A stretch of 64,000 nt of DNA, taken from Antedon mediterranea (Eukaryota; Animalia; Echinodermata). The stretch is taken from the NCBI RefSeq assembly GCF_964355755.1, contig NC_092677.1, forward strand, positions 24,353,175-24,417,174. The letters run 5' to 3'. Positions 22,861 through 58,616 of this stretch are shown one piece after another; the stretch's first letter is position 1, and every line of letters begins with the position of its first letter. The position numbers and the translations under genes were made by a program. The notes beneath the pieces were generated by a model that saw only the letters and a program-made list of their open reading frames with translations, did not search any database and was not told where the DNA came from.

Positions 22861-25800
22861 ATGTTCATCTTTAAAGACGTAAGAATACTAGTACTAGGCC
22901 TAGTAATAGTACTATTGCCATTCTGTCTCACAAATAAAGTCAAACCTGGTATGTATTAAATGCATTTAAAATTTAGAACTAAAGTGACTGCTTAAACATG
23001 AACTATCATCACTATCTAAGTAGGCCTGTGTCTGAATAATCATGGGCAATGTCAGATATTTTAGATACTATTATCTGTGGGACCGTCTTCTCACAGTAGG
23101 TTGGTGATCATGGACATTCATCTATTTCTGCATTCTTATAATAACTATATCTTTTGTTCATACTTTATGTTGGGTCATTTTTTTTTACTAATTAATACTG
23201 TACTGTGTAAAACATAGATGTTTCGGTTTTTGCCGATTGTTCTCAGGTTTTGTGAAATTGTCAAAACTTTATACGGATAAACCGCATCTCAAGGTATTCA
23301 ATCTTGTTTCAAAGTGTTTTTCTGTTAGTGTTCAAATGTCCACGATACAACAGTATTGACAACACGTAACATTTTTTTTTAGTGTTTGGTTCTGTTAGTG
23401 TTAAAGTTTCCATCATACAACAGTGTTGAAAGCGCGTAGCATTTTGTTAGTGTTTGAATACACGATCAGGTTTTTGCATCGTGTTTGATTCTGTCAGTGT
23501 CCATGTTTCCACCATACAACAGTGTTGAATACATGATCAGGTTTTTGCATCGTTATTGGTTCTGTCAGTGTCCATGTTTCCACCATACAGCAGTGTAACA
23601 TTAATCTGTATCCTGTGGTATGCAGCTGCAATAACGTATCACTGTGTGCGTGTATGGCGAAGTCTATACGTTACCGGAAACAGTCGAATTCCTTTGTTTT
23701 AAAGAAAATCTTATTTTGGAACTTATTAAATTATTATTAACAAGGCCATAATATGCATGGATGCAGTCGCGTGCTCAAGTTAGTGTTTACCAACCAACCG
23801 ACATAGCGAGTGACTCAAAAGCTAAGCATTAAACTATTGGGAACTCATGATACAATACATTCCAATTAATTGTTTATGATGCTTTCTGTTTTCTTTATTT
23901 TTAATTTTAAGGTTTTAACCATATTTTATGTTGAATATAAAATTTTAAGAGGATAATTATTAATAACAGTTTTGCAAATTTGCCATCTATGATTTATTCT
24001 AAAAGTTGTATTCATGTAAATATAATGTTTGATTTACATACCTACTGTACAAAATAATTTTGGACTGATGTTTTTTTTTTATTGGTGAACATCGACGAAT
24101 AGTTCTGTATATAGACTTCACAAACAACATTTTCAGTTTATCCACAGGGTTGCTATGACCACATATATAGGCCTACTGGTGTAGTTTGTTCGCCATGGAA
24201 CATGAATACAGTTGCAGAACTCATTAAGTATAATAAACAAAGCACCATATTAATATTGTAAGTATTGCAGTGTACGTACGGTTGCTTTTAAGTAAATACA
24301 GAATATACTTTGTTTATTTCTCAATGTAAAGGGTATTGCTAAACCGAAAACCTTCAAAAACATAGCAAACCCCATCGAACCAACATAAACAAGTAGAATT
24401 AATTTCGTCACTTTGACGAATTGTAGGTGATCATTGTGATAACAAAATATATTAAAATATGAGCGCAAAGCGTTGTAGTGCTGCTGAGTTGTGTATTGTG
24501 TAGTCTAGTCATAGAATATATAAAGTATATAATATACACGGGTCCCATAGTATGTTCTAATGGCATGATGACGTTATCCAAATCAAAGAAAAAAAATTAC
24601 AGAATTGTAAATCGTCCAAAATAGACCATGATTTATTACTGAGATTTTTTCAAAAACACGGGTGAAATGGACTGATACTGCTAAGGGAGAGAAATGCCTA
24701 ATAAAGTCTACTTTAGTTATAAAATAAGAAAAAAAAGCATTGTATTTTGTAATTATCACACTCTAGGCCCTTAACGTTTATTTTCTCTTCGTTTAGCAAT
24801 TATTTACCGAGAAGCACAAAATGATGTATACAAGTGTTATTTTCAGAAATCTTAATAAATGTGATAATTTATTGTAAAGCGTTTACAACCAGCCTATATT
24901 TAAATTAAATTTCAATAATCTAAAAACGGTTCATTGTTATATTTAGCAGCATAGTAGGCCTGTGGTGTAATGAATAAAACAAGAATACACACAATATGTA
25001 TACATAGATATGTGTGCTTTTTTAATGAAATCAAATCGTTCAATCAAATAACAGGAAATATTCAGGTGTTATATAGTATGGTATAATTAATACTATACCT
25101 ATACCTATGAAGTTAATCATAATGTTATTTACTGCACAATATACACATATTTAAAAAAAAATATGTTAAAACTAGCACATAAATATAGGTCATGCTTATT
25201 GTGTCATATTCTAAATTAAATTCGTCAATATTAAACTGTATGAAAGCAAACTTGTGCCTGAAACTGAAAAGGCTTTCCGTTGCAAAATGTAAATTAAATG
25301 GTAAGTTTAGCAATTATTTGCTAAGCACAAAATGATGTATAAAAGTGTTATTGTCAGAAATATTAATAAAGATGATAATTCATTGCAAAGCATCCACATC
25401 AGTCTATATTTTATCATTTGAATAATTAATAAAATGTTGATTGTCTTTAAATTGTTTAATGAATTATTTAGCAGCACAATATGGTATAATTAATAAAACT
25501 TTCATATTTCACAACTTTTAAGGGAATTGCAAAACAATCAAATTATTGCATTGACAGAGAATGCATTCGCTGGTTTGAAATCATTGGAATGGCTGTAAGT
25601 GACATTGTTTATGTTTACATATCTATGACGTTAATCATAATGTTATTTACTGCACAATATACAAATATTTACAAAACAATATGTTAAAGTAAACTTGAGC
25701 CTGAAACTGTAAAGGCTTTCCGTTGCAAAATGTAAATTAACTAGTAAGTTTAGCAATTATTTGCTGATATGCTCACAATGATGTATAAAAATGTTATTGT

Positions 25801-28800
25801 CAGAAATCTTAATAAAGGTGATATATTCATTGCAAAGCATCGACATCAACCTATATTTATTAATTTGAATTAAAAATAAATGTTGATTGTCTTGTAATTG
25901 TTTAATGAATAATTTAGCAGCATAATATGGTATAATTAATAAAACGATATCTTTTACATTTTACAACTTTGAAGGAGGTTGGAGAACAATCAAATTAGTA
26001 CATTGACAGAGAATGCATTCGCTGGTTTGGAATCATTGGAATGGCTGTAAGTGACGTTGTTTATGTTTACATACCTATGACGTTAATCCTAATGTTATTT
26101 ACTGCACAATATACACATATTTAAAAACAATATTTTAAAACTAGTACATATACATATAGGTCAATGCTTATTGTGTCATATTCAAAATGAAATTCCTCAA
26201 TACTGTATGAAAGAAAACTTGAGCCTGAAACTGTAAAGGCTTTACGTTGCCAAAATGGTGAGTTTAACAATTATTTGCTGATAAGCACACAATGATGTAT
26301 AAAAAGTGTTATTGTCAGAAATATTAATAAATGTGATAATTCATTGCTAAAAATCCAAATCAGTCTATATTTATTCATTTGAATAATTAAAAAAGAATGT
26401 TGATTGTCTTTTAATTGTTTAATGAATTATTTAGCAGTATAGTATGTAGTATCATGAATACAACTTTGTTTTATATTTCACAACTTTGAAGGTACTTGAA
26501 AAACAATCAAATTAGTACATTGACAGCCAATGCATTCGCCGGTTTGAAATCATTGGAAAGCCTGTAGGTGACGTTGTTTATGTTTACCTATGACGTTAAT
26601 AAAAATGTTATTTACTCCACAATATACACATATTTTATACACAATGGAGAGTTTAGCAATTATTTTCTGTTGTGTTATTGTCAGAAATCTTAATAAAGGT
26701 GATAATTCATTGCAAAAAATCCATATCAGTCTATATTTAATTTATATTTCAATAATCTAAAAATGGTTCATTGTTATATTTAATAAGTATTTAGCAGCAT
26801 AGTAGGCCTGTGGTGTAATGAATAAAACAACAATACATACAATATGTATACATAAATATATGATGTGTGCTTTTTTAATGAAATCAAATCATTCAATCAA
26901 ATAACAGGAAATATTCAGGTGTTATTGGTATAATTAATAAAAACTATCTTTTACATTTCATAATTTTGAAGGTGGTTGTTCAACAATCAAATTAGTACAT
27001 TGGCAGAGAATGCATTTGCTGGTTTGGAATCATTGGAAAGGCTGTAAGTGTTATTCTTCATCATATCCACATACGTACTTTCATATATATCATGTTTTAT
27101 ACACATTCAAGCTAGGGGGCATATACACATTCAAGCTAGGGGGCCTACACACATTGTACACACATCGTAACCTTATTAGGTGAAATACTTTTGTCGAAAT
27201 GGATTATTTTCATAGTAATTCATTGTTAGAAAGAGTAAATCAAACTTAGTATTTTATTAGTTTGTTACCAAACTAGTTAACAAATGTAACATTAGAGGAA
27301 TATTTAGCAGTGTATAGCATATGAATCAAATTTAAGTAAGTAAGCTATAAGATTTAATAAGAAATTGTTAATTTTATTCGTATTTATTCATTCATTTCGA
27401 CACACACTAGCCCTGGTATTTATTCTTACAAAGTTATTACAATTTAATCTCACTCTTATTTGCTGTGACGAAATAACTCTCCTCATATACACACCTATTT
27501 AAAAACAATATTTTAAAACTAGTACATAAATATAGGCCAATTAAATTGTGTCATATTCAAAATAAAATTCCTCAACTGTATAGCAAATTTGAGCCTGAAA
27601 CTGTAAAGGCTTTATGAAAATAAGTAAATAGCCTTTACATACCCTATTTTAAATTCTAAAAAGTCTGAAAAAATCTTCAAGTGCAGTCGTGATCGATTAG
27701 TGTATTTGGTAAACTGTATCAAGTGAATTTGTGCCTGAAACTGACAAGGCTTTCCGTTGTAAAATGTAAATTAAATTGTGAGTTTAGCAATTATTTGCTG
27801 GTATTCACACAATGTATTATTGCTATATTGTCAGAAATATTATTAGGTAAAGTTAATTTATGGCCTATATTATTTTAATTAATCCAATAATCTAAAAATC
27901 AGTCATTGTCTTCAATTGAATATTTGGCTAAAACTATATCTTTTACATTTAACAACTTTTAAGGGGTTTGCACTACAATCAAATTAGTACATTGACAGCC
28001 AATACATTCGCTGGTTTGGAATCGTTGAAAGAACTGTAAGTGACATTGATTATGTTTACATACCTATGACGTTAATCCTAATGTTATTTACTCCACAATA
28101 TACACATATTTAAAAAACAATATTTTTAAACTAGTACATAAATATATAGGCCAATGCTTATTGTGTCATATTCAAAATGAAATTCGTCAATATTAAACTG
28201 TATGAAAGCAAACTTGAGCCTGAAACTGTAAAGGCTTTCCGTTGCAAAATGTAAATTAAATGGCGAGTTTAGCAATTATTTTCTGTTAATCACACAATGA
28301 TGTATAAATGTGTTATTTTCAGAAATCTTAATAAATGTGATAATTCATTGCAAAGCATCCACATCAGTCTATATTTATTTATTTTAATAACTAAAAAAAT
28401 GTTGATTGTCTTTTAATTGTTTAATGAATTATTTAGCAGCACAATATGGTATAATTAATAAAACTGTCATATTTCACAACTTTTAAGGTGGTTACAAAGC
28501 AATCAAATTAGAACATTGACAGAGAATACATTCGCTGGTTTGGAATCATTGGAAGGACTGTAAGTGACATTGATTATGTTTACATACCTATGACGTTAAT
28601 CCTAATGTTATTTACTCCACAATATACACATATTTAAAAAACAATATTTTTAAACTAGTACATAAATATATAGGCCAATTCTTATTGTGTCCTATTCAAA
28701 ATGAAATTCCTCAATATTAAACTGTATGAAAGCAAACTTGAGCCTGAAACTGTAAAGGCTTTCCGTTGCAAAATGTAAAATAAATGGCGAGTTTAGCAAT

Positions 28801-31800
28801 TATTTTCTGTTAATCACACAATGATGTATACATGTGTTATTGTCAGAAATCTTAATAAATGTGATAATTCATTGCAAAAAATCCACATCAGTCTATATTT
28901 AATTTATATTTCAATAATCTAAAAATGGTTCATTGTTATATTTAATAAGTATTTAGCAGCATAGTAGGCCTGTGGTGTAATGAATAAAACAACAATACAT
29001 ACAATATGTGATGTAAGATATATGATGTGTGCTTTTTTAATGAAATCAAATCGTTCAATCAAATAACAGGAAATATTCAGGTGTTATATAGTATGGTATA
29101 ATTAATAAAACTATCTTTTACATTTCATAATTATGAAGGTGGTTGTACAGCAATCAAATTAGTACATTGACAGCCAATGCATTCGCTGGTTTGGAATCAT
29201 TGAAATACCTGTAAGTGACGTTGTTTATGTTTACCTATGACGTTAATTATAATGTTATTTACTGCACAATATATACATATTTAAAAACAATAGTTTAAAA
29301 CTAGTACATACAAATAGGCCAATGCTTATTGTGTCATATTCAAAATGAAATTCTCCTATATTAAACTGTATGAAAGCAAACTTGAGCATGAAACTGAAAA
29401 GGCTTTCCGTTACAAAATGTAAATTAAATTGTGAGTTTAGCAATTATTTGCTGATATGCTCACAATGATTGTATAAATGTGTTATTGTCAGAAATATTAA
29501 TAAAGGTGATAATTGATTGCAAAGCATTAACATCATCCTATATTTATTTATTTGAATAATTAAAAAAAATGTTGATTGTCTTTTAATTGTTTAATGAATT
29601 ATTTAGCAGTATAATATGGTATAATTAATAAAACTTTCATATTTCACAACTTTGAAGGAGGTTGCAGTACAATCAAATTAGAACATTGACAGAGAATGCA
29701 TTCGCTGGTTTGAAATCATTGGATAGTCTGTAAGTGACGTTGTTTATGTTTACATACGTATGACATTAATCCTAATGTTATTTACATATAAAAAATCCAC
29801 ATCAGTCTATATTTAATTTATATTTCAATAATCTAAAAATGGTTCATTGTTATATTTAATAAGTATTTAGCAGCATAGTAGGCCTGTGGTGTAATGAATA
29901 AAACAACAATACACACAATATGTATACATAGATATATGGTGTGTGCTTTTTTAATGAAGTAAAATCATTCAATCAAATAACATGAAATATTCAGGTGTTA
30001 TATAGTATGGTATAATTAATAAAAACTATCTTTTACATTTCATAATTTTGAAGGTGGTTGCAAAACAATCAAATTAGTACATTGACAGAGAATGCATTTG
30101 CTGGTTTGGAATCATTGAAAGACCTGTAAGTGTTATTCTTCATCATATCCACATACGTACCTCCATACTGTATATCATGTTATATACACATTACACACAT
30201 TGTACATATACATCGTAACCTTGGTTACTTTTGTCAACATGGATTATTTTCATAATAATTCATTATTGAGTAAATCAAAATTATAGTATTTATTAGTTTG
30301 TTACCAATATTAGGAATATTTAGCATTGTTATAGCCTGTGAATCAAATTTAAGTTAGTTAGCTATAAGATTTAAAAAGACATTTTTAATTTTATTCGTAT
30401 TTATTCATTCATTTTGACACACCAGCCCTGGTTTTTATACTTACAAAGTTATTACAATTTAATCTCACTCTTATTTGTTGTGACGAAATACCTCTCCTCA
30501 AAGAATTGACCAATACATTAACTATTAGCTTAATTAAACAGGTATTTACAGGACAACAATATAACTACTATTGATCAAGGCGCCTTCTCTGTTTTTGCCT
30601 CATCACTTGGAAAACTGTAAGTAATTTATTCTGAAATTCATATGCAGTTTCTCGAAATAATTAATCACTTCAATTAGGTACTTTTCTTATGCTATAAACA
30701 TGTTATCCAAGAAAAAACGGTATCAACAGGATAGGTTTACATACATTTTTTAAACATGGGTAAATTTTTTCATTCATTATTGTATCTGGCTCATTCCATG
30801 GAGTTGAACATGAGAAAGCATTTTAAAAGTTAATCTAACAAGTAGAACAAACAACTTTTTATATAATTAAACATATAAGTAGAAGGATTATCTTAAGTGC
30901 CGACGGTGATAAAAATATTATTTTGAGACTACATTGCATCAGTTAGACACTAAATTGATTGTGGTATACCTTCATTAATACGATATCACTAAAACGACAT
31001 CGGTGCTATCCAAATGAGACATACTCGTAGATATTTAGTTACATGTGAGCTACACTCATTGGCACTGATTTGATATTTGTTTCCATATTTATTTTTTTTT
31101 ACAGAGACATCAGACGCAACAATTTACAAGTTTACAGAGAAAGTACTTTTGAAGAATTGAAATATATAACAGAATTGTAAGTATTATGTCGGATTTAGAA
31201 ATTCTTTATATTCATTAAATGATATTTTTATTTTGTTTTAACACAGTTACCAATTCCACATGCATGCCGACAGTGGCCCAACAAAATTGTTTATGTAGGC
31301 CTACAGCTTTTAGGTTATTTTAAATTTCTCCTTCACTTCTATCTTTTAAATTGGTCGTACACGTCATACTTTTACTATACGAGTAGATTTGATTGGCTGT
31401 AAAGCAGTCGTTATTCCACCTGTTATAGAACTAAAACCATTATAAACATTGTTATAGTAGGCTACTACTGTATTTAACAACTTCCATTAAATTCAATTGT
31501 TTTTTTAACATAGATATTCAGATTTGTTTCGTCTCTGTTGTGTTGTTGGAGAAATTGAAGTATGTGAGCCTACTGATGCTTTTGCGTCCTGCGCTGACTT
31601 ACTAAAGAGAGAAGTTCTTAGGATATTGATGATAGTTATTGGACTGTCATCTTTTATCGGTAACTTGATTGTCATCATATCGCGAAGGATAAACAAAGAA
31701 AATAGGTCTACAGTTGATTCTATTCTACTCACTAATCTTGCCGCGGCTGACTTGCTGATGGCAATTTATTTGCTGATCATCGCAGGTGCAGATATACACT

Positions 31801-32498
31801 ACAGAGGAAGGTACGCGAAGGTTGCCAGCGAATGGAAAAACAGCTTTCTCTGCTCTTTTTCCGGTGCTATTTCAACACTGTCTGGGCAGTGTTCCGTGTC
31901 AACCTTGATGGTTATGAGTATTAACCGTGCTATAAACATCGTCTATCCATTCAGCACCAAACGGCTCAAACGTACGAAATGCAAAATTATCATCGGTATT
32001 GCTTGGCTGGTATGGCTTTTTGTTAGTTTCCTTCCACTGGTAGCTAACAAGTCACATGTCGGCATACCATATTTTGGCGAGAACTACTACGGAAAACAAA
32101 GTGTGTGTCTCGCGTTGCCACTAACACGACATCGATTACCAGGCTGGGAGTACGCCACGGCCATATTCATCGCATTCAATGGCTTGGGTTTTTTTGTTAT
32201 CACAGCAAGTTATTTGACGATTTTCCTCTCCGTTAAGAGATCTGCAATCACGGCTAACAGAATGCAGAGACGAGAAGAGGAAATCAAAATGGCCGTGAAA
32301 CTAGGGTTTATTGTTTTCACCGATTTCTGTTGCTGGTTTCCCATCATAGTAATGGGAATTTGTTCAGAGATGGAGTGGTGGAGAATTCCTGATGATATAT
32401 ACGTTTGGGCAGCAACATTTATAATTCCCATTAACTCATCAGTAAACCCATATCTTTACACAATTATTTATATGTGTAAAAGCGAGCGTAGGCCATAA
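22861..32498 (+). CDS. LRR-containing GPCR copy 1 (RXFP/GRL101-like 7TM), apparently intact, ~674 aa. Exons 22861-22948, 23247-23293, 24148-24257; variable LRR exons 25523-25594, 25975-26046, 26492-26563, 26972-27043, 27964-28035, 28488-28559, 29139-29210, 29658-29729, 30054-30125; fixed LRR exons 30542-30616, 31105-31176; hinge+7TM 31514-32498
   Basis: Signal peptide MFIFKDVRILVLGLVIVLLPFCLT; Cys cap GCYDHIYRPTGVVCSPW; LRRs xLxxNQISTLTENAFAGLESLxxL; hinge CC...CEPTDAFASCADLL; TM motifs GNLIVI, NLAAADLLMAIYL, CLALP, IVFTDFCCWFPI, PINSSVNPYLY. All GT-AG and in phase (2025 nt). Exons 1-2 are less certain than the rest. Confidence 0.88.
23310..23597. repeat. Intronic minisatellite, ~60-70 bp unit (also ~36300-36580 and ~50130-50415)
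   Basis: Repeated TTCTGT(T/C)AGTGT...TCCA(C/T)CATACAACAGTGTTGAA units. Confidence 0.75.
24790..30130 (+). repeat. Array of exon+intron LRR cassettes, copy 1 (9 exons)
   Basis: ~400-1000 bp units sharing intron blocks (GAGCCTGAAACTGTAAAGGCTTTCCGTTGCAAAATG; TTTAGCAATTATTT; GGTATAATTAATAAAAC), each ending in a 72-nt exon. Confidence 0.95.
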
Positions 32499-35400
32499 AG
32501 CTGACATTCCTCGTGCATTCTCAGTTTATTTATTTACTACATTTATTTATTCAATTTTGATTCACAAGGGTAGCTCTAACAGGTGTACGAGTACAGCTGT
32601 CTTGAATAGGCCCTTTTAAAAACATTATACAATTATACAAAAAGACATTCAAACATCAAATTACAAGTAGATCCATAAAGCCTGTTCCTGTCGATCGTTA
32701 AGTTGCGTTGAGTTGCGCTAAGTTGCGTTGACATATTCAACGATTTGACAGGAAAAGGGGGTAAAAAATCAACGTTACAAATCGTTAAAGTCTGAAATCA
32801 TAAAATTACAAGTAGATTCATAAAGTTAAAATTCAGGTTTTTAAGAAGTTAAAACATTACAAGTTAAAATATTAAAATTTACGGAGTAATTTATTTTTGC
32901 AAACTACTCCATCAAGAAACTAAAAGAAAATTAATACATTTGAGTTTTGAACTCTGCACTTTTATTTTTTACTTGTTATTCTTGATTCTAGTGTTTTTAT
33001 CAGATATTATTTGGAGTTTGTATTGGGTACACTGTGACGGGTACAAGTAGTACCATTAGGGTGTGTTCCATGTATATATAGGAATTATAGGTGTAAAGGA
33101 ATTATAGATATATTTATTTCAATAAACACCATTGCAACAACAAAAAAACAAAAACAAAAAACATTATGTTTAAATTTTGTTTTTTGAGCTACATTGTTTG
33201 TCTGTTGATAAGTGTGTAGTTTAGAAAGATTAGGTTGGTTGATTGTAAAGTATAGTAAATTATCAAATTGATTTATTACAAAATAAATATTATATTTGTT
33301 ATCTTTGTGAATATTTTGTATATAAAGATACATTTGAATAATTAGTTTCATTATTTATTTAATTTGTTAAGATATTGAGTGTATCTGACAAAGGACAAAC
33401 AAAAAGATTTAGTATAGATTGAGATGTGCACAAACTCGGCTAGTAAGATTTACTATCAGTCTTGTGTTTTGTCTTTTAACTTTGTAACTGTGTGTTTGTC
33501 TGTATTCAATTCATCCTATGTACGTTTAATTATTCACGTTTTTATTCAAACTTTGCATTTAGATCAACAAAATACTTTCTTTATTATCTGTAATAAACAG
33601 CTATATACTCAGTCGGAATACTAATAAATATTAGATGGAAAAGAATTATTGTATCTTTATAATTATTTGGTTCCTACATTGGTTTAAACTTAATGAGATA
33701 CAACTGAATATTGGAAGCAATATATCGTCAATTAATAGATGATCCTATAACATATGTTTTTTGTAATTTGTCGGATACCACTTTTTCATGGAGTTTACAT
33801 AAATAATAATATTATCTGACTACATGTGTTTTTGTAATTTTGCAATTAGTGATAGTTAAATCCAATGAATAATTAAAATCACCAACGCGACCAATTTCCT
33901 AAGAAATTAGAAATGTATTTATTATTCTTATTACACTGAAAAATATTGTTTAGATCTTAAACATCTATTTTGTACCAACTTTTTCATCTTTATTTTATTA
34001 TTTATTTTATTTATTTTTATTTTATTCAGTTCACAACCAACAGCGATGAAACCGCCACTAACAGGTTGGATATAAACATAATAAACTATAATAATAAATT
34101 CAAAGAAGCAACAAAAACATAAACAAAGATTGGAACATTATAGCGTGTTTAAAACCTAAACGTGTTTATAGCTACATTTTGTTTTCCTCCACTCGTTTAG
34201 CAGTCAACATGTAACTATTATGTTCAGTCAACATGTTTAGGTACGTGTTTAGCGTTGCGTGCAGCGCATATGATTTTACTGTGGCGGAAAAAAAGCTCCA
34301 CACATGAGCTCCACACGTGGCAAATTAATATTGCTTTATATTGCTCCACATGTTTAACAATAAGCACGTCACTGATGTGTTGAGTTGGATACAGACTGCA
34401 TGTTTAGAACCTAAACATGTTCATATCTAAACATGTTTAAGGCTAAATGTGTGGAAAACGTTGGTACAAATAGATGTTTAAGATCTAAACACTATTTTTA
34501 CAGTGATAATATGATTTTTGTTTGCTCGTCTGATTTCGCTGATGTCATCATCTGCCAGGGAGGAATATTTCTATTTGTACAAATAAAACAAGAACAAGAG
34601 ACAAGAACTAACTGATTATGTTGTATTCAGTGATATTTGAGAAAGTGTTGCCTAACTCAATGGTAATCCTAAACGAATGTGTCCATCATAGAAGGACATA
34701 CACATGGCTGCGTACAGTCGCGTGCTCAAGTTAGTGTTTACCGACCAACCGACATAGTGAGCTGTAGAGTCGCGTTGCACGTGATTAAAAACCGAAGCGA
34801 AATTTTAATTTATGGGTGTCCTCGTGTTTTAAAAACTAATTTCTTTCCATTCATATCCAAACTTTCAACATACTAAAATGGTATTATCTAATTTATATTT
34901 AAATTGCACGTGGCCATAATTAACTCACTCCTTTGTAGATTCATCCTCACACTAAGAGTTTTGTATTTTCAAATAACAGTGCAAAATCCACTCACCTAGG
35001 CCTACAGATTCATTATATTCCCAAAAGTTTCTATTCTCAATTTAATTCCTAGAACTTACATTGCCTGATGCTCAACACTGCTTTGCTTTAAGTATAAATA
35101 CTGATTTTGAATTCAGTATAAGAACTAGATTCATTTCAGCCACAACAAGCGGTTTTGTTCATATTTAATTCTGAGTAACAGACGGAGCTGATGCTTCAAC
35201 CTCTTTGCGTAAAAAAAAAAAATTTCTGCAACCAGATACAAGAAACTTTATTTGTCTTCGTAAAAACAAAGGAATATCGGTTGTCAGGAAATCCCATTAA
35301 AAAGATACATATATATAAACGGACTAAAGAATCATAATTAGTTACTTAGACTAATACTTTTTTTGTATAGACAAATACTTTCTTTTTTATATATTAAATA

Positions 35401-40700: not shown

Positions 40701-43700
40701 TTGCAAAATGTAAATTAAATGGCGAGTTTAGCAATTATTTTCTGTTAATCACACAATGATGTATAAATGTGTTATTTTCAGAAATCTTAATAAAGGTGAT
40801 AATTCATTGCAAAAAATCCACATCAGTCTATATTTATTCATTTTAATAATTAAAAAAATGTTGAATGTATTTTAATTGTTTAATGAATTATTTAGCAGTA
40901 TAATATGGTATAATTAATAAAACTGTCATATTTCACAACTTTTAAGGTGGTTGCAAGGCAATCAAATTAGTACATTGACAGCCAATACATTCGCTGGTTT
41001 GGAATCATTGGAAGAACTGTAAGTGACATTGATTATGTTTACATACCTATGACGTTAACCGTAATGTTATTTACTGCACAATATACACACATTTAAAAAC
41101 ATTATTTTAAAACTAGTACATAAATATAGGCCAATGCTTATTGTGTCATTATTCAAAATGAAATTCGTCAATATTAAACTGTATAAAAGCAAACTTGAGC
41201 CTGAAACTGTAAAGGCTTTCCGTTTCAAAATGTAAATTAAATGGTGAGTTTAGCAATTATTTTCTGTTAATCACACAATGATGTATAAATGTGTTATTGT
41301 CAGAAATCTCAATAAATTAATTCATTGCAAAAAATCCACATCAGTCTATATTTATTCATTTTAATAATTAAAAAAATGTTGAATGTATTTTAATTGTTTA
41401 ATGAATTATTTAGCAGTATAATATGGTATAATTAATAAAACTGTCATATTTCACAACTTTTAAGGTGGTTGCAAGGCAATCAAATTAGTACATTGACAGC
41501 CAATACATTCGCTGGTTTGGAATCATTGGAAGAACTGTAAGTGACATTGATTATGTTTACATACCTATGACGTTAACCGTAATGTTATTTACTGCACAAT
41601 ATACACACATTTAAAAACATTATTTTAAAACTAGTACATAAATATAGGCCAATGCTTATTGTGTCATTATTCAAAATGAAATTCGTCAATATTAAACTGT
41701 ATAAAAGCAAACTTGAGCCTGAAACTGTAAAGGCTTTCCGTTTCAAAATGTAAATTAAATGGTGAGTTTAGCAATTATTTTCTGTTAATCACACAATGAT
41801 GTATAAATGTGTTATTGTCAGAAATCTCAATAAATTAATTCATTGCAAAAAATCCACATCAGTCTATATTTAATTTATATTTCAATATTCTAAAAATGGT
41901 TCATTGTTATATTTAATAAGTATTTAGCAGCATAGTAGGCCTGTGGTGTAATGAATAAAACAACAATACATACAATATGTGATGTAAGATATATGATGTG
42001 TGCTTTTTTAATGAAATCAAATCGTTCAATCAAATAACATGAACTTTTCAGGTGTTATATAGTATGGTATAATTAATAAAAACTATCTTTTACATTTCAT
42101 AATTTTGAAGGCAGTTGTACAACAATCAAATTAGTACATTGACAGCCAATGCATTTGCTGGTTTGGAATCATTGAAAGAACTGTAAGTGTTATTCTTCAT
42201 CACATCCACATACGTATTTCCATATATATCATGTTTTATACACATTACACATATTTAAAACTAGTACATAAATATAGGACAATGCTTATTGTGTCATATT
42301 CTAAATTAAATTCCTCAATATTAAATTGTATGAAAGCAAACTTGAGCCTGAAACTGTAAAGGCATTCCGTTGCAAAATGTAAATTAAATGGCGAGTTTAG
42401 CAATTATTTGCTGATATGCTCATAATGATTGTATAAATGTGTTATTGTCAGAAATCTTAATAAATGTGATAATTCATTGCAAAAAATCCACATCAGTCTA
42501 TATTTAATTTATATTTCAATAATCTAAAAATGGTTTATTGTTATATTAAATAAGTATTTAGCAGCATAGTAGGCCTGTGGTGTAATGAATAAAACAACAA
42601 TACACACAATATGTATACATAGATATATGGTGTGTGCTTTTTTAATGAAATCAAATCGTTCAATCAAATAACATGAAATATTCAGGTGTTATATAGTATG
42701 GTATAATTAATAAAAACTATCTTTTACATTTCATAATTATGAAGGTGGTTGGAAAACAATCAAATTAGTACATTGACAGCCAATGCATTCGCTGGTTTGG
42801 AATCATTGAAATACCTGTAAGTGACGTTGTTTATGTTTACCTATGACGTTAATTATAATGTTATTTACTGCACAATATATACATATTTAAAAACAATAGT
42901 TTAAAACTAGTACATACAAATAGGCCAATGCTTATTGTGTCATATTCAAAATGAAATTCTCCTATATTAAACTGTATGAAAGCAAACTTGAGCATGAAAG
43001 TGAAAAGGCTTTCCGTTACAAAATGTAAATTAAATTGTGAGTTTAGCAATTATTTGCTGATATGCTCACAATGATTGTATAAATGTGTTATTGTCAGAAA
43101 TCTTAATAAATGTGATAATTCATTGCAAAGCATCCACATCAGCCTATATTTATTCATTTTAATAATTAAAAAAATGTTGATTGTCTTTTAATTGTTTAAT
43201 GAATTATTTAGCAGTATAATATGGTATAATTAATCAAACTTTCATATTTCACAACTTTGAAGGGGGTTGTTCAACAATCAAATTAGAACATTGACAGAGA
43301 ATGCATTCGCTGGTTTGGAATCATTGGAAATTCTGTAAGTGACGTTGATTATGTTTACAAACCTATAAAGTTAATCATAATGTTATTTACTCCACAATAT
43401 ACACAGATTAAAAAACAATATTTTTAAACTAGTACATAAATATATAGGCCAATGCTTATTGTGTCATATTCTAAATGAAATTCCTCAACATTAAACTGTA
43501 TGAAAGCAAACTTGAGCCTGAAACTGTAAAGGCTTTCCGTTTCAAAATGTAAAATAAATTGTGAGTTTAGCAATTATTTTCTGTTAATCACACAATGATG
43601 TATAAATGTGTTATTTTCAGAAATCTTAATAAATGTGATAATTCATTGCAAAAAATCCACATCAGTCTATATTTAATTTATATTTCAATAATCTAAAAAT

Positions 43701-43990
43701 GGTTCATTGTTATATTTAATAAGTATTTAGCAGCATAGTAGGCCTGTGGTGTAATGAATAAAACAACAATACACACAAAATGTATACATAGATATATGGT
43801 GTGTGCTTTTTTAATGAAGTCAAATCATTCAATCAAATAACATGAAATATTCAGGTGTTATATAGTATGGTATAATTATTAAAAACTATCTTTTACATTT
43901 CATAATTTTGAAGGTTGTTGCAAAACAATCAAATTAGTACATTGACAGAGAATGCATTTGCTGGTTTGGAATCATTGAAAGACCTGTAAG
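37780..43990 (+). repeat. Array of exon+intron LRR cassettes, copy 2 (11 exons), with a 2315-bp four-cassette duplication and a 518-bp single-cassette duplication
   Basis: Exon starts 38632/40947, 39150/41465, 39796/42111 and 40430/42745 differ by 2315 and encode identical peptides; 38632/39150 differ by 518. Confidence 0.95.
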
Positions 43991-45350: not shown

Positions 45351-46335
45351 ATATTCAGATTTGTTTCGTCTCTGTTGTGTTGTTGGAGAAATTGAAGTAT
45401 GTGAGCCTACTGATGCTTTTGCGTCCTGCGCTGACTTACTAAAGAGAGAAGTTCTTAGGATATTGATGATAGTTATTGGACTGTCATCTTTTATCGGTAA
45501 CTTGATTGTCATCATATCGCGAAGGATAAACAAAGAAAATAGGTCTACAGTTGATTCTATTCTACTCACTAATCTTGCCGCGGCTGACTTGCTGATGGCA
45601 ATTTATTTGCTGATCATCGCAGGTGCAGATATACACTACAGAGGAAGGTACGCGAAGGTTGCCAGCGAATGGAAAAACAGCTTTCTCTGCTCTTTTTCCG
45701 GTGCTATTTCAACACTGTCTGGGCAGTGTTCCGTGTCAACCTTGATGGTTATGAGTATTAACCGTGCTATAAACATCGTCTATCCATTCAGCACCAAACG
45801 GCTCAAAGGTACGAAATGCAAAATTATCATCGGTATTGCTTGGCTGGTATGGCTTTTTATTAGTTTCCTTCCACTGGTAGCTAACAAGTCACAGGTCGGC
45901 ATACCATATTTTGGCGAGAACTACTACGGAAAACAAAGTGTGTGTCTCGCGTTGCCACTAACACGACATCGATTACCAGGCTGGGAGTACGCCACGGCCA
46001 TATTCATCGCATTCAATGGCTTGGGTTTTTTTGTTATCGCAGCAAGTTATTTGACGATTTTCCTCTCCGTTAAGAGATCTGCAATCACGGCTAACAGAAT
46101 GCAGAGACGAGAAGAGGAAATCAAAATGGCCGTGAAACTAGGGTTTATTGTTTTCACCGATTTCTGTTGCTGGTTTCCCATCATAGTAATGGGAATTTGT
46201 TCAGAGATGGAGTGGTGGAGAATTCCTGATGATATATACGTTTGGGCAGCAACATTTATAATTCCCATTAACTCATCAGTAAACCCATATCTTTACACAA
46301 TTATCTATATGTGTAAAAGCGAGCGTAGGCCATAA
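45351..46335 (+). CDS. Hinge + 7TM terminal exon of LRR-GPCR copy 2 (open)
   Basis: ORF 45361..46335 differs from copy 1 at only 4 of 324 aa (R>G, V>I, H>Q, T>A). Confidence 0.9.
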
Positions 46336-49300: not shown

Positions 49301-49657
49301 ATTATGTAAAATTAAAATGGCATATTAAAAAAACCATTTAAAACATTATTTTTTCAGGGGGACAATAATCTTTATATTAAAAAATTTAGTTACAGCAGTA
49401 AAATACACTCTATACATGATGACGTGTGAAGCTCCACAAATCGAAATAATGGATTATCAAAAGAAAAACAATCAATAATTAAATCATATTACACCCACAA
49501 ACAATAATTGAATGCGTCTGGTAATGTGATTTAAGTGATTGTCATCTTAAAAATGAATGAAGAAATCATAAAATAATAAGACCTATGCATTATACTAGAG
49601 AGCTTTTCACAAACTAACGGTTCATTTCTATTACCGATTTAATACGTATGTAAGAAG

Positions 49658-52600
49658 ATGTTCATCTTTAAAGACGTAAGAATACTAGTACCAGGCCTAG
49701 TAATAGTACTATCGCCATTCTGTCTCACAAATAAAGTCAAACCTGGTATGTATTAAATGCATTCAAAATTTAGAACTTAAGTGACTGCTTAAACATGAAC
49801 TATCATCACTATCTAAGTAGGCCTGTGTCTGAATAATCATGGGCAATGTCAGATATTTTAGATACTATTATCTGTTCTGGGACCGTCTTACCCAGTACCG
49901 TTTTGATCGTACGATTAATCGGGAAACCACCTCACGACATCTATTTCTGCATTCTTATAATAACTATATCTTTTGTTCATACTTTATGTTGGGTCATTCT
50001 TTTTTTACTAATTAATACTGTACTGTGTAAAACAGATGTTTCTGTTTTTGCCGATTGTTCTCAGGTTTTGTGAAATTGTCAAAACTTTATACGGATAAAC
50101 CGCATCTCAAGGTATTCAATCTTGTTTCAAAGTGTTTTTCTGTTAGTGTTCAAATGTCCACGATACAACAGTATTGACACAAGACGTAACATTTTTTTTT
50201 TAGTGTTTGGTTCTGTTAGTGTTAAAGTTTCCATCATACAACAGTGTTGAAAGCGCGTAGCATTTTGTTAGTGTTTGAATACACGATCAGGTTTTTGCAT
50301 CGTGTTTGATTCTGTCAGTGTCCATGTTTCCACCATACAACAGTGTTGAATACACGATCAGGTTTTTGCATCGTGTTTGGTTCTGTCAGTGTCCATGTTT
50401 CCACCATACAGCAGTGTAACATTAATCTGTATCCTGTGGTATACAGCCGCAATAACGTATCACTGTGTGCGTGTATGGCGAAGTCTATACGGTACCGGAC
50501 ACAGTCGAATACCTTTGTTTTAAAGAAAATCTTATTTTGGAACTTATTAAATTATTATTAACAAGGCCATATGCATGGATGCAGTCGCGTGCTCAAGTTA
50601 GTGTTTACCAACCAACCGACACAGTGTTGCACGCGACTCAAAAGCTAAGCATTAAACTATGGGGAACTCATGATACAATACATTCCAATTAATTGTTTAT
50701 GATGCTTTCTGTTTTCTTTATTTTTAATTTTAAGGTTTCAACCATATTTTATGTTGAATGTAAAATTTTAAGAGGATAATCATTAATAACAGTTTTGCAA
50801 ATTTGCCATCTATGATTTATTCTAAAAGTTGTATTCATGTAAATATAATGTTTGATTTATACATACCTACCGTACAAAATAATTTTGGACTAATGTTTTT
50901 TTTATTGGTGAACATCGACGAATAGTTCTGTATATAGACTTCACAAACACAATTTTCAGTTTATCCACAGGGTTGCTCAGGCCAAAATTTATTTCCTGGT
51001 GTAGTTTGTTCACCATGGAACATGAAAACAGTTGCAGAACTCATTAAGTATAATAAACAAAGCACCATATTAACATTGTAAGTATTGCAGTGTACGTACG
51101 GTTGCTTTTAAGTAAATACAGAACATACTTTGTTTATTTCTCAATGTAGAGGGTATTGCTAAACCGAAAACCTTCACAAACATAGCAAACCCCATCGAAC
51201 CAACATAAACAAGTAGAATTAATTTCGTCACTTTGACGAATTGTAGGTGATCATTGTGATAACAAAATATATTAAAATATGAGCGCAAAGCGTTGTAGTG
51301 CTGCTGAGTTGTGCCTATTGTGTAGTCTAGTCATAGAATATATAACGTATATAATATACACGGGTCCCATATATGTTCTAATGGCATGATGTAGTTATCC
51401 AAATCAAAGAAAAAAAATTACAGAATTGTAAATCGTCCAAAATAGACCATGATTTATTACTGAGATTTTTTCAAAAACACGGGTGAAATGGACTGATACT
51501 GCTAAGGGAGAGAAATGCCTAATAAAGTCTACTTTAGTTATAAAATAAGAAAAAAAGCATTGTATTTTGTAATTCTCACACTCTAGGCCCTTAACGTTTA
51601 TTTTCTCTTCGTTTAGCAATTATTTACCGAGAAGCACAAAATGATGTATACAAGTGTTATTTTCAGAAATCTTAATAAATGTGATAATTTATTGTAAAGC
51701 GTTTACAACCAGCCTATATTTAAATTAAATTTCAAAAATCTAAAAACGGTTCATTGTTATATTTAGCAGCATAGTAGGCCTGTGGTGTAATGAATAAAAC
51801 AACAATACACACAATATGTATACATAGATATGTGTGCTTTTTTAATGAAATCAAATCGTTCAATCAAATAACAGGAAATATTCAGGTGTTATATAGTATG
51901 GTATAATTAATACTATACCTATACCTATGAAGTTAATCATAATGTTATTTACTGCACAATATACACATATTTTTAAAAAAATATGTTAAAACTAGCACAT
52001 AAATATAGGCCATGCTTATTGTGTCATATTCTAAATTAAATTCGTCAATATTAAACTGTATGAAAGCAAACTTGTGCCTGAAACTGAAAAGGCTTTCCGT
52101 TGCAAAATGTAAATTAAATGGTAAGTTTAGCAATTATTTGCTAAGCACAAAATGATGTATAAAAGTGTTATTGTCAGAAATCTTAATAAATGTGATAATT
52201 CATTGCAAAGCATCCACATCAGTCTATATTTTATCATTTGAATAATTAATAAAATGTTGATTGTCTTTAAATTGTTTATTGAATTATTTAGCAGCACAAT
52301 ATGGTATAATTAATAAAACTTTCATATTTCACAACTTTTAAGGGAATTGCAAAACAATCAAATTATTGCATTGACAGAGAATGCATTCGCTGGTTTGAAA
52401 TCATTGGAATGGCTGTAAGTGACATTGTTTATGTTTACATATCTATGACGTTAATCATAATGTTATTTACTGCACAATATACAAATATTTACAAAACAAT
52501 ATGTTAAAGTAAACTTGAGCCTGAAACTGTAAAGGCTTTCCGTTGCAAAATGTAATTAACTAGTGAGTTTAGCAATTATTTGCTGATATGCTCACAATGA

Positions 52601-55600
52601 TGTATAAATGTGTTATTGTCAGAAATCTTAATAAAGGTGATAATTCATTGCAAAAAATCCACATCGGTCTATATTTAATTTATATTTCAATAATCTAAAA
52701 ATGGTTCATTGTTATATTTAATAAGTATTTAGCAGCATAGTAGGCCTGTGGTGTAATGAATAAAACAACAATACATACAATATGTGATGTAAGATATATG
52801 ATGTGTGCTTTTTTAATGAAATCAAATCGTTCAATCAAATAACAGGAAATATTCAGGTGTTATATAGTATGGTATAATTAATAAAACTATCTTTTACATT
52901 TCATAATTATGAAGGTGGTTGTACAGCAATCAAATTAGTACATTGACAGCCAATGCATTCGCTGGTTTGGAATCATTGAAATACCTGTAAGTGACGTTGT
53001 TTATGTTTACCTATGACGTTAATTATAATGTTATTTACTGCACAATATATACATATTTAAAAACAATAGTTTAAAACTAGTACATACAAATAGGCCAATG
53101 CTTATTGTGTCATATTCAAAATGAAATTGTCCTATATTAAACTGTATGAAAGCAAACTTGAGCCTGAAACTGTAAAGGCTTTCCGTTGCAAAATGTAAAT
53201 TAAATGGCGAGTTTAGCAATTATTTTCTGTTAATCACACAATGATGTATAAATGTGTTATTTTCAGAAATCTTAATAAAGGTGATAATTCATTGCAAAAA
53301 ATCCACATCAGTCTATATTTATCATTTTAATAATTAAAAAAATGTTGAATGTCTTTTAATTGTTTAATGAATTATTTAGCAGTATAATATGGTATAATTA
53401 ATAAAACTGTCATATTTCACAACTTTTAAGGTGGTTGCAAAGCAATCAAATTAGTACATTGACAGCCAATACATTCGCTGGTTTGGAATCATTGGAAGAA
53501 CTGTAAGTGACATTGATTATGTTTACATACCTATGACGTTAACCGTAATGTTATTTACTGCACAATATACACACATTTAAAAACATTATTTTAAAACTAG
53601 TACATAAATATAGGCCAATGCTTATTGTGTCATTATTCAAAATGAAATTCGTCAATATTAAACTGTATAAAAGCAAACTTGAGCCTGAAACTGTAAAGGC
53701 TTTCCGTTTCAAAATGTAAATTAAATGGTGAGTTTAGCAATTATTTTCTGTTAATCACACAATGATGTATAAATGTGTTATTGTCAGAAATCTCAATAAA
53801 TTAATTCATTGCAAAAAATCCACATCAGTCTATATTTAATTTATATTTCAATATTCTAAAAATGGTTCATTGTTATATTTAATAAGTATTTAGCAGCATA
53901 GTAGGCCTGTGGTGTAATGAATAAAACAACAATACATACAATATGTGATGTAAGATATATGATGTGTGCTTTTTTAATGAAATCAAATCGTTCAATCAAA
54001 TAACATGAACTTTTCAGGTGTTATATAGTATACAAATAATGAATGTTTATGAGTGCAATGGTACAAATAATGGCACGAGGTGAATGATGAAAGGTTATAT
54101 CAACGAGGCAAAGCCGAGTTGATATAACCTTTCATCATTCACCAAGTGCCATTATTTGTACCATTACACGAATACAAAACATTCATTATTTGTTTTATAT
54201 AACATCTAGACGTTTTTTTTTTCGTACACAAAAATGTTTCAAAAAGTACTATTTAACGATCGTTGAATAGTGCGTACTATTGCACGCCATGTGACCCACA
54301 TTCGTCCAATCAAATGACAGGAATTTATATAGGTGTTATATAGTATGGTATAATTAATAAAAACTATCTTTTACATTTCATAATTTTGAAGGCAGTTGTA
54401 CAACAATCAAATTAGTACATTGACAGCCAATGCATTTGCTGGTTTGGAATCATTGAAAGAACTGTAAGTGTTATTCTTCATCACATCCACATACGTATTT
54501 CCATATATATCATGTTTTATACACATTACACATATTTAAAACTAGTACATAAATATAGGACAATGCTTATTGTGTCATATTCTAAATTAAATTCCTCAAT
54601 ATTAAATTGTATGAAAGCAAACTTGAGCCTGAAACTGTAAAGGCTTTCCGTTGCAAAATGTAAATTAAATGGCGAGTTTAGCAATTATTTGCTGATATGC
54701 TCATAATGATTGTATAAATGTGTTATTGTCAGAAATCTTAATAAATGTGATAATTCATTGCAAAAAATCCACATCAGTCTATATTTAATTTATATTTCAA
54801 TAATCTAAAAATGGTTTATTGTTATATTAAATAAGTATTTAGCAGCATAGTAGGCCTGTGGTGTAATGAATAAAACAACAATACACACAATATGTATACA
54901 TAGATATATGGTGTGTGCTTTTTTAATGAAATCAAATCGTTCAATCAAATAACATGAAATATTCAGGTGTTATATAGTATGGTATAATTAATAAAAACTA
55001 TCTTTTACATTTCATAATTATGAAGGTGGTTGGAAAACAATCAAATTAGTACATTGACAGCCAATGCATTCGCTGGTTTGGAATCATTGAAATACCTGTA
55101 AGTGACGTTGTTTATGTTTACCTATGACGTTAATTATAATGTTATTTACTGCACAATATATACATATTTAAAAACAATAGTTTAAAACTAGTACATACAA
55201 ATAGGCCAATGCTTATTGTGTCATATTCAAAATGAAATTCTCCTATATTAAACTGTATGAAAGCAAACTTGAGCATGAAAGTGAAAAGGCTTTCCGTTAC
55301 AAAATGTAAATTAAATTGTGAGTTTAGCAATTATTTGCTGATATGCTCACAATGATTGTATAAATGTGTTATTGTCAGAAATCTTAATAAATGTGATAAT
55401 TCATTGCAAAGCATCCACATCAGCCTATATTTATTCATTTTAATAATTAAAAAAATGTTGATTGTCTTTTAATTGTTTAATGAATTATTTAGCAGTATAA
55501 TATGGTATAATTAATCAAACTTTCATATTTCACAACTTTGAAGGGGGTTGTTCAACAATCAAATTAGAACATTGACAGAGAATGCATTCGCTGGTTTGGA

Positions 55601-58600
55601 ATCATTGGAAATTCTGTAAGTGACGTTGATTATGTTTACAAACCTATAAAGTTAATCATAATGTTATTTACTCCACAATATACACAGATTAAAAAACAAT
55701 ATTTTTAAACTAGTACATAAATATATAGGCCAATGCTTATTGTGTCATATTCTAAATGAAATTCCTCAACATTAAACTGTATGAAAGCAAACTTGAGCCT
55801 GAAACTGTAAAGGCTTTCCGTTTCAAAATGTAAAATAAATTGTGAGTTTAGCAATTATTTTCTGTTAATCACACAATGATGTATAAATGTGTTATTTTCA
55901 GAAATCTTAATAAATGTGATAATTCATTGCAAAAAATCCACATCAGTCTATATTTAATTTATATTTCAATAATCTAAAAATGGTTCATTGTTATATTTAA
56001 TAAGTATTTAGCAGCATAGTAGGCCTGTGGTGTAATGAATAAAACAACAATACACACAAAATGTATACATAGATATATGGTGTGTGCTTTTTTAATGAAG
56101 TCAAATCATTCAATCAAATAACATGAAATATTCAGGTGTTATATAGTATGGTATAATTATTAAAAACTATCTTTTACATTTCATAATTTTGAAGGTTGTT
56201 GCAAAACAATCAAATTAGTACATTGACAGAGAATGCATTTGCTGGTTTGGAATCATTGAAAGACCTGTAAGTGTTATTCTTCATCATATCCACATACGTA
56301 CCTCCATACTGTATATCATGTTATATACACATTACACACATTGTACATATACATCGTAACCTTATTTTGTTACTTTTGTCAACATGGATTATTTTCATAA
56401 TAATTCATTATTGAGTAAATCAAAATTATAGTATTTATTAGTTTGTTACCAATATTAGGAATATTTAGCCTGTGAATCAAATTTAAGTTAGTAAGCTATA
56501 AGATTTAAAAAGAAATTTTTAATTTTATTCGTATTTATTCATTCATTTTGACACACCAGCCCTGGTTTTTATTCTTACAAAGTTATTACAATTTAATCTC
56601 ACTCTTATTTGTTGTGACGAAATACCTCTCCTCATAGAATTGACCAATATACATTAACTATTAGCTTAATTAAACAGGTATTTACAGGACAACAATATAA
56701 CTACTATTGATCAAGGCGCCTTCTCTGTTTTTGCCTCATCACTTGGAAAACTGTAAGTAATTTATTCTGAAATTCATATGCAGTTTCTCGAAATAATTAA
56801 TCACTTCAATTAGGTACTTTTCTTATGCTATAAACATGTTATCCAAGAAAAAGCGGTATCAACAGGATAGGTTTACATACATTTTTTAAACATGGGTAAA
56901 TTTTTACATTCATTATTGTATCTGGCTCATTCCATGGAGTTGAACATGAGAAAACATTTTAAAAGTTAACAACTTTTTATATAATTAAACATATAAGTAG
57001 AAGGATTATCTTAAGTGCCGACGGTGATAAAAATATTATTTTGAGACTACATTGAATCAGTTAGACACTAAATTGATTGTGGTATACCTTCATTAATACG
57101 ATATCACTAAAACGACATCGGTGCTATCCAAATGAGACATATTCGTAGATATTTAGTTACATGTGAGCTACACTCATTGACACTGATTTGATATTTGTTT
57201 CCATATTTTTTTTTTTTTTACAGAGACATCAGACGCAACAATTTACAAGTTTACAGAGAAAGTACTTTTGAAGAATTGAAATATATAACAGAATTGTAAG
57301 TATTATGTCGGATTTAGAAATTCTTTATATTCATTAAATGATATCTTTATTTTGTTTTAACACAGTTACCAATTCCACATGCATGCCGACAGTGGCCTAA
57401 CAAATTGTTTATGTAGGCCTACAGCTTTTAGGTTATTTTAAATTTCTCCTTCACTTCTATCTTTTAAATTGGTCGTACACGTCATACTTTTACTATACGA
57501 GTAGATTTGATTGGCTGTAAAGCAGTTGTTATTCCACCTGTTATAGAACTAAAACCATTATAAACATTGTTATAGTAGGCTACTACTGTATTTAACAACT
57601 TCCATTAAATTCAATTGTTTTTTTAACATAGATATTCAGATTTGTTTCGTCTCTGTTGTGTTGTTGGAGAAATTGAAGTATGTGAGCCTACTGATGCTTT
57701 TGCGTCCTGCGCTGACTTACTAAAGAGAGAAGTTCTTAGGATATTGATGATAGTTATTGGACTGTCATCTTTTATCGGTAACTTGATTGTCATCATATCG
57801 CGAAGGATAAACAAAGAAAATAGGTCTACAGTTGATTCTATTCTACTCACTAATCTTGCCGCGGCTGACTTGCTGATGGCAATTTATTTGCTGATCATCG
57901 CAGGTGCAGATATACACTACAGAGGAAGGTACGCGAAGGTTGCCAGCGAATGGAAAAACAGCTTTCTCTGCTCTTTTTCCGGTGCTATTTCAACACTGTC
58001 TGGGCAGTGTTCCGTGTCAACCTTGATGGTTATGAGTATTAACCGTGCTATAAACATCGTCTATCCATTCAGCACCAAACGGCTCAAAGGTACGAAATGC
58101 AAAATTATCATCGGTATTGCTTGGCTGGTATGACTTTTTATTAGTTTCCTTCCACTGGTAGCTAACAAGTCACAGGTCGGCATACCATATTTTGGCGAGA
58201 ACTACTACGGAAAACAAAGTGTGTGTCTCGCGTTGCCACTAACACGACATCGATTACCAGGCTGGGAGTACGCCACGGCCATATTCATCGCATTCAATGG
58301 CTTGGGTTTTTTTGTTATCGCAGCAAGTTATTTGACGATTTTCCTCTCCGTTAAGAGATCTGCAATCACGGCTAACAGAATGCAGAGACGAGAAGAGGAA
58401 ATCAAAATGGCCGTGAAACTAGGGTTTATTGTTTTCACCGATTTCTGTTGCTGGTTTCCCATCATAGTAATGGGAATTTGTTCAGAGATGGAGTGGTGGA
58501 GAATTCCTGATGATATATACGTTTGGGCAGCAACATTTATAATTCCCATTAACTCATCAGTAAACCCATATCTTTACACAATTATCTATATGTGTAAAAG

Positions 58601-58616
58601 CGAGCGTAGGCCATAA
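49658..58616 (+). pseudogene. LRR-GPCR copy 3 with premature stop. Exons 49658-49745, 50065-50111, 50971-51077; 7 variable LRR exons (starts 52343, 52915, 53431, 54392, 55026, 55544, 56195); 56678-56752, 57224-57295, 57632-58616
   Basis: TGG>TGA at 58131-58133 in TM4 splits the 7TM ORF into 57642..58133 and 58221..58616. The signal peptide also has L>P and L>S changes. Confidence 0.8.
54032..54346. mobile_element. 315-bp palindromic insertion unique to copy 3
   Basis: Absent from the matching introns of copy 2. Long hairpin (ACAAATAATGAATGTTT...AAAGGTTATATCAAC / GTTGATATAACCTTT...AAACATTCATTATTTGT); AGGTGTTATATAGTAT repeated at 54016 and 54331. Confidence 0.85.

Follow-up and report, generated by a model that had tools for sequence, protein, structure and literature searches.

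A stretch of 64,000 nucleotides from the crinoid Antedon mediterranea (NCBI RefSeq assembly GCF_964355755.1, contig NC_092677.1, positions 24,353,175 to 24,417,174; the window) contains three direct tandem copies of a 12-14 kb gene unit, each predicted to encode a receptor of the G-protein-coupled type (GPCR) with a leucine-rich repeat (LRR) ectodomain. These are probably young tandem genes for GRL101-like LRR-GPCRs without an LDLa module, in which single-LRR exon cassettes are gained, lost and recombined in the germline and the concave face of the repeats is under diversifying selection, an arrangement that would suit recognition of variable foreign ligands. Unequal crossing-over and gene conversion would shuffle the cassettes and keep the scaffold uniform, selection would maintain a diverse binding face, and birth and death would turn the genes over.

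Gene models were made by joining exons by coordinates (predicted splicing). Each gene begins with a signal-peptide exon and a two-cysteine N-cap exon, continues with the array of LRR exons (72 nt each) and a fixed pair of further LRR exons, and ends in a 985-nt exon for the hinge and the seven-transmembrane domain (7TM). Junctions are AG..GT throughout, and the LRR exons are phase 2-2. The models of copy 1 (14 exons, 662 residues) and copy 2 (16 exons, 708 residues) have open frames. The N-cap exon measures 121, 115 and 118 nt in copies 1, 2 and 3, and the two fixed LRR exons have the same sequence in all three. One repeat per exon is usual in GPCRs with leucine-rich repeats (LGRs) (PMC8286064). 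The features were as follows.

21144..34140 (approximate), no strand assigned: first duplicated gene unit; homology between units starts at ~21144, ~34141 and ~47969
22861..22948, + strand: copy 1 exon 1, 88 nt, start codon and signal peptide predicted from hydropathy, ending in phase 1
24137..24257, + strand: copy 1 exon 2, N-cap with two cysteines and high variability between them
25523..30125, + strand: copy 1 array of nine 72-nt LRR exons, all distinct
25523, 25975, 26492, 26972, 27964, 28488, 29139, 29658 and 30054, + strand: starts of the copy 1 cassettes
30542-30616 (75 nt) and 31105-31176 (72 nt), + strand: copy 1 fixed LRR exons
31514..32498, + strand: copy 1 short hinge, seven-helix domain and 12-residue tail, in one exon
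35849-35936, + strand: copy 2 exon 1
37134-37248, + strand: copy 2 N-cap exon 2
38115..43985, + strand: copy 2 LRR array, eleven exons of 72 nt with six distinct sequences
44397-44471 and 44943-45014, + strand: copy 2 fixed LRR exons
45351-46335, + strand: copy 2 7TM exon
49658-49745, + strand: copy 3 exon 1
50960-51077, + strand: copy 3 N-cap exon 2
52343..56266, + strand: copy 3 array of seven 72-nt LRR exons, the first unit as in copy 1 and the last four exons as in copy 2
56678-56752 and 57224-57295, + strand: copy 3 fixed LRR exons
57632-58616, + strand: copy 3 7TM exon, with an in-frame stop at 58131-58133

The arrays hold 27 exons of exactly 72 nt, bounded by AG..GT on the + strand (9, 11 and 7 in copies 1, 2 and 3), which represent 15 distinct sequences. 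The initial annotation, made from the sequence alone, had described three tandem genes with these numbers of one-LRR exons and had quoted the ends of the cassettes; all 27 exons were located, with the ends it quoted, and cassette number and order do differ from copy to copy. A fuzzy search of both strands of the 64 kb returned the same 27 cassettes only, with no orphan or inverted cassette. A 75-nt candidate LRR exon at 23952 (with its copies) was rejected, as it has no proper core and lies within a shared intron stretch.

Variation among the 15 distinct cassettes falls on few positions. Structural positions never change residue, and all 27 exons retain frame, splice sites and the leucine/asparagine core; eight residues were seen at x3, seven at x5, six at x7, four at x8 and three at x2. 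In the predicted model of the paralogue P0133 (pLDDT 89), used as a stand-in for the window proteins, each beta-strand lies at x3-L-x5 on the concave face, the common ligand-binding surface of LRR domains (PMC4561518). At concave codon positions 1 and 2, divergence was 0.39, compared with 0.086 in alignable introns, and was the higher of the two in 77 of 77 unit pairs, which are non-independent; permutation gave p ~0.005 (11 of the 15 units, with homologous flanks). Because the variable codons sit at exon edges, an edge effect was tested with eight silent-capable sites interleaved with them (invariant x10 excluded), at which diversity was 0.033 versus 0.455 (p=0.0008). Comparison of concave with other free positions gave p=0.006. 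With variation concentrated on the concave face, the results support the earlier proposal that a conserved GPCR carries an LRR surface undergoing rapid diversification.

The N-cap exon is a second variation hot spot. It diverges by 6-11%, with in-frame indels, compared with 3.2-4.4% for intron 1 and 0.4-1.1% for intron 2, and it exceeds both flanking introns in two of the three copy pairs. In a contig of another organism, seven differences were listed for this exon, which together change five residues. Every codon difference between copies in exon 1 alters the residue (5, 2 and 7 codons).

Every LRR occupies a symmetric phase-2 exon within a repeated unit of 400-650 bp, so that gain or loss of a unit stays in frame. 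Units are common to different copies at up to 100% identity, in differing orders. Within copy 2, 2518 bp (38126-40644) are repeated without mismatch at a period of 2315 bp, a four-cassette duplication, and for this reason its array has only six distinct cassettes. One unit keeps its exon in copy 2 (38115-38186) and has lost it in copies 1 and 3.

25060..25110 (copy 1) and ~51912 (copy 3), + strand: empty cassette unit, flanks retained and LRR exon absent, found by alignment

In the four-gamete test inside the cassette exon, 19 of 36 informative site pairs failed, which corresponds to at least three recombination events and marks the cassettes as recombinant mosaics. The 5' regions of the genes form a patchwork among all three copies, which weakened a simpler description of copy 3 as a chimera of a copy 1 5' part and a copy 2 3' part. 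From the shared and reordered units, the lost exon, the mosaics and the 5' patchwork, unequal crossing-over and gene conversion were inferred. Since each beta-strand spans an exon junction, reshuffling would also create new strand combinations.

Symmetric exons in repeated units would also make two other mechanisms mechanically possible, VLR-like somatic recombination of cassettes and regulated exon skipping, either of which would give each cell its own receptor. This is very improbable. The genes are complete in the assembled DNA, the 64 kb holds no unattached or inverted cassette, and the substitution spectrum has no deaminase-type excess (10 of 38 changes were C>T/G>A). The cassettes are all ordinary spliceable exons within genes, and the initial annotation's likening of the system to VLRs is not supported in the sense of somatic assembly.

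Less improbable, but still unlikely, is an assembly artefact (haplotypes placed in tandem, or a slipped repeat) behind the copy number or behind the four-cassette duplication. The mismatch-free 2518 bp repeat in copy 2 would fit such an error, as would the 99.75% identity of copies 2 and 3 across 4.86 kb of their 3' parts and the fold-back repeat after copy 3. Against this, the 5' regions have diverged by 2-4%, contain indels and share sites in a patchwork, and copy 3 has a private stop and a private insertion with a direct repeat, which is likely a target-site duplication. Many paralogues are present in an independent assembly, and there are 15 distinct cassettes whatever the copy count.

54016..54346, no strand assigned: intronic insertion of 315 bp, private to copy 3, with a 16-bp flanking direct repeat and a long internal hairpin

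The 7TM matched Pfam 7tm_1 with E=1.2e-30. The hinge comprises ~30 residues, cysteine hinge motifs join the LRR ectodomain to the 7TM in the open models, and database homologues have the same order of LRRs, hinge and 7TM. The tail ends 12 residues after helix 7, and the end of helix 3 reads INRA in the window genes versus [VIF]DRA in most members of their clade. Between copies 1 and 2, the 7TM exon differs at 5 of 985 nt, with four amino-acid differences in 328 codons, the number given in the initial annotation. Its description of the 7TM as almost invariant was upheld in part. Near-identity between the copies is mostly a matter of recent duplication or conversion, because the adjacent introns are not significantly more diverged (5/985 versus 15/1211, Fisher p=0.11). 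Against run X5 of another organism, the 7TM piece had 5 differences in 394 nt and four intronic pieces 43 in 1025 (p=0.005; five of the eight listed pieces were taken and three mixed pieces left out), which suggests constraint on the 7TM.

No LDLa module was detected by six-frame pattern, a tblastn search with an LDLa-rich relative gave no match near the genes, and only three cysteines precede the hinge. The nearest relatives of the window 7TM are crinoid proteins named GRL101-like, and the closest known relatives include models that RefSeq calls GRL101-like in Antedon mediterranea and in Anneissia japonica. Antedon mediterranea P0083 is 96% identical in the constant part and other paralogues 60-81%; 14 differences in 376 residues separate the window sequence from XP_071959546.1. 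A quick tree of 99 rows was made, with branch support from the Shimodaira-Hasegawa-like approximate likelihood ratio test (SH-aLRT), excluding rows with fewer than 250 aligned residues and unnamed rows without LDLa. The window genes fell in a clade of 26 rows (24 of A. mediterranea and two window copies; SH-aLRT 100), nested in a crinoid clade of 36 rows (SH-aLRT 99), and the closest rows outside the latter were LDLa-bearing crinoid receptors. P0014, which is likely the true GRL101 of Antedon, grouped with annelid, nemertean, snail and urchin rows in a separate multi-LDLa clade (99). The crinoid-only clade stands apart from the P0014 group in this tree, whose rows included neither type A or B receptors nor Lymnaea GRL101. 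The LDLa pattern was absent in 34 clade proteins, many of which are truncated models.

Because the LDLa pattern is missing and the tree clade is separate, the window genes are classed as type C-related and not as GRL101 orthologues, and are best taken as part of a crinoid-specific, expanded clade of LDLa-less GRL101-like receptors. For the paralogue P0133, RXFP1 was the best sequence match of solved structure (E=6e-86), VLRA was among the sequence matches of the LRR part, and the fold matches included LGR4, TSHR and FSHR.

The pattern of variation was found in relatives as well. P0083 has two cassettes, both unseen in the window, that combine the same variants anew; because 18 of its N-terminal residues translate an intron repeat, its model in the database is likely truncated. 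P0133, from another sub-lineage with another scaffold, has eleven repeats on a distinct uniform LRR framework with the same variable positions, and P0129, P0005 and P0003 have older arrays with block duplications. Among 34 proteins with at least five distinct repeats, off-concave diversity was lowest in P0133 and the three window copies (0.08-0.24, the others being at least 0.37), and their concave diversity was 0.62-0.69. Of 149 further representatives, from a search dominated by giant LRR proteins, the 30 with a 7TM match and enough repeats were all at least 0.49 off the concave face, and some of the 117 without a 7TM match were equally uniform (0.01-0.25). A uniform scaffold with a variable concave face is thus unusual among the LRR-GPCRs sampled, and not among LRR proteins.

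Several results weigh against the favoured reading of diversifying selection for recognition of foreign ligands, as does the expression of expanded GRL101-like genes of snails and starfish in sensory organs, which favours a chemosensory role. Inside concave codons, the Nei-Gojobori path count gave a proportion of synonymous differences (pS) of 0.32 against a nonsynonymous one (pN) of 0.365, and pN/pS over the whole exon was ~1.1 by the same path count. With flanks from both downstream intron classes, which are non-homologous, taken together, the comparison with introns reached only p=0.06-0.08; the values given above come from the 11 of 15 units that belong to a single class and from introns alignable in pairs. 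The N-cap exon does not differ significantly from intron 1 between copies 1 and 2 (p=0.33). Copy 3 carries the change TGG>TGA at 58131-58133 in its 7TM exon and is likely a pseudogene or a truncated form, and in copy 2 a glutamate has been gained in the hydrophobic core of the signal peptide (exon 1, 35849-35936). None of the 10 sequencing runs is recorded as RNA, and no exon-exon joint was among the 15 listed of the 26 joints for X9, itself not recorded as RNA. RXFP1 and RXFP2 without LDLa do not signal (PMC4561518), and because they need this module, signalling by LDLa-less, short-tailed receptors is not to be assumed.

Such points could be accommodated by a mostly neutral, unstable array, in which conversion homogenises the exon core while residues at the surface drift, in genes that would be redundant, decaying or unable to signal. 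That one copy in three has a stop, that pS is near pN within concave codons, that the variable codons lie at exon edges and that four of the five 7TM changes between copies 1 and 2 are nonsynonymous would all be expected of it. It is nevertheless improbable, as silent-capable sites at the same exon edges are almost invariant, concave codons have about fourfold the divergence of introns, and 27 of 27 exons keep frame, splice sites and core. The 7TM is more conserved than introns in the comparison with another organism, and the pattern recurs in a paralogous lineage.

Two of the runs bear on splicing. In X9, depth was present in six of nine cassette bins, with little or none in seven of eight intervening intron bins, and such depth gaps prove nothing; the start of one X9 contig coincides with the predicted 7TM acceptor (31514), 53 more of its letters being unplaced, which is a hint only. 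Run X8, guessed to be RNA, covered introns.

Among the closest analogues is the ROCO family of LRR-GTPases in Ectocarpus, in which one 72-nt exon encodes each 24-residue LRR, exons are shuffled between near-identical paralogues, the concave face is under selection and pseudogenes occur (Zambounis et al., PMC3341825). Those proteins are cytoplasmic GTPases of a brown alga with a ROC-COR domain and inverted intronic cassettes, whereas the window genes encode a predicted animal cell-surface GPCR and have every cassette in sense orientation. By analogy, the crinoid genes would work like the ROCO system and not like VLR assembly.

VLRs of jawless fish are assembled somatically from a cassette reservoir into an incomplete germline gene, in lymphocyte-like cells and with deaminase involvement, and carry an LRRCT, a stalk and a GPI or single membrane anchor. 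In the window genes, by contrast, the cassettes are sense-strand exons of complete genes and the C-terminal part is an LGR hinge with a 7TM. What the two have in common is 24-residue LRR modules that vary on the concave face (PMC3341825).

LGRs are conserved hormone receptors. With GRL101-like or type C LGRs (Lymnaea GRL101, RXFP1/2) the window genes have in common a rhodopsin-family 7TM, a short cysteine hinge and an LRR ectodomain; they differ in having no LDLa, 9-13 LRRs (fixed ones included), a uniform scaffold with a variable concave face, and several copies. Veenstra found a single orthologue of every type C receptor in each ambulacrarian (PMC8286064). The SudRes2 cluster of Biomphalaria sudanica (PMC12297450) and the GRL101 genes of apple snails (PMC6573481) are likewise tandem, lineage-specific GRL101-like expansions with presence/absence variation, for which a defence or sensory role has been proposed in these papers. 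SudRes2 proteins differ in that LDLa is kept and a C-type lectin added (PMC12297450), and the accessible parts of PMC12297450 and PMC6573481 describe no LRR-exon shuffling or concave-face selection for the snail expansions. Lineage-specific expansions are also known for the 41 Trichoplax-specific LGRs (PMC9545775) and for octopus adhesion-GPCR group 3, with LRRs in 5 of 22 sequences (PMC6408891); these belong to other receptor lineages, and no cassette-level hypervariability is given in the accessible parts of the two papers. PMC6267866, PMC4079206, PMC11521371, PMC13403566 and PMC11863921 were also compared. No paper on the crinoid family or on cassette-level LGR diversification was found in the open literature, and subscription papers and supplements (PMC8286064, PMC11863921) may list members. 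Exon-shuffled LRR recognition proteins and expanded GRL101-like receptors are both known kinds; their combination in this receptor class is one for which no prior report was found.

Among functions, recognition of non-self (pathogen or parasite) was ranked first, at slightly less than an even chance, and detection of chemosensory or conspecific cues second, at a clearly lower one. The same genes with the same germline shuffling could work not in defence but in chemosensation or the recognition of conspecifics, through pheromone, gamete, settlement or feeding cues, which we regard as a possible but doubtful reading. Apple snails have 29-132 GRL101-like genes, many in tandem, expressed in tentacles and palps (PMC6573481), and GRL101-like transcripts of starfish and triton are described as enriched in sensory tentacles. 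On the side of defence, repeat shuffling, concave-face selection and pseudogenes have been reported together for candidate defence receptors (PMC3341825), and the parasite-resistance region of a snail contains a GRL101-like cluster (PMC12297450). A wider form of the defence reading, offered only tentatively, is that the LDLa-less crinoid offshoot of the relaxin/GRL101 family may be a genome-wide combinatorial non-self repertoire of dozens of GPCR genes in several sub-lineages with their own LRR scaffolds, the exons shuffled between individuals and perhaps alternatively spliced, giving antibody-like diversity wired to G-protein signalling.

Descriptions of GRL101-like expansions have so far dealt with gene numbers and tissues; in the window genes it is the ligand-binding face that is modular and fast-evolving, a trait they share with candidate immune receptors of brown algae. 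Should the receptors detect microbes or parasites, the echinoderm repertoire of recognition molecules would come to include a class of GPCRs, in the least-studied class of the phylum. The genes also raise the question of how a type C-related receptor lacking LDLa becomes activated. The family is easily overlooked, as the database model of the closest orthologue opens with translated intron and retains two cassettes.

Three groups of database proteins were noted in passing. P0272, P0176 and P0238 are large LRR proteins with no match to the window 7TM, extremely uniform scaffolds and variable concave faces. Long C-terminal tails occur in P0002, P0006, P0007, P0008 and P0023-P0025, which are LDLa-bearing or coral relatives; several of these have a kinase-like PF07714 match, and the tails contrast with the 12 residues that follow helix 7 in the window genes. 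The scallop GRL101-like proteins P0036-P0038, P0042, P0050 and P0028 form a separate clade with no LDLa matches and 3-18 LRRs, partly homogenised, and are possibly a parallel expansion.

Outside the genes, 62 stop-free frames of at least 62 residues gave no Pfam match above the curated cut-off. Over the short intronic segments 23750-23810, 24356-24435 and 24640-24700, all four runs compared showed very high depth and numerous loose ends; the segments are likely genome-wide interspersed repeats. Just after copy 3, 59184-64000 consists of nested inverted and direct repeats of 98-99.9% identity with arms of up to 1785 bp, including a 160-bp tandem at 63175-63495; this block looks like a fold-back element or an assembly end, and a 50-bp piece of its end is present in copy 3 intron 1 (49890-49944). 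Three inverted-repeat pairs of 148-238 bp and 84-99% identity (12254-13495, 14420-16473 and 18976-20239) are likely non-autonomous DNA transposons, and 6140-6492 is a degenerate tandem array with a period of 28-30.

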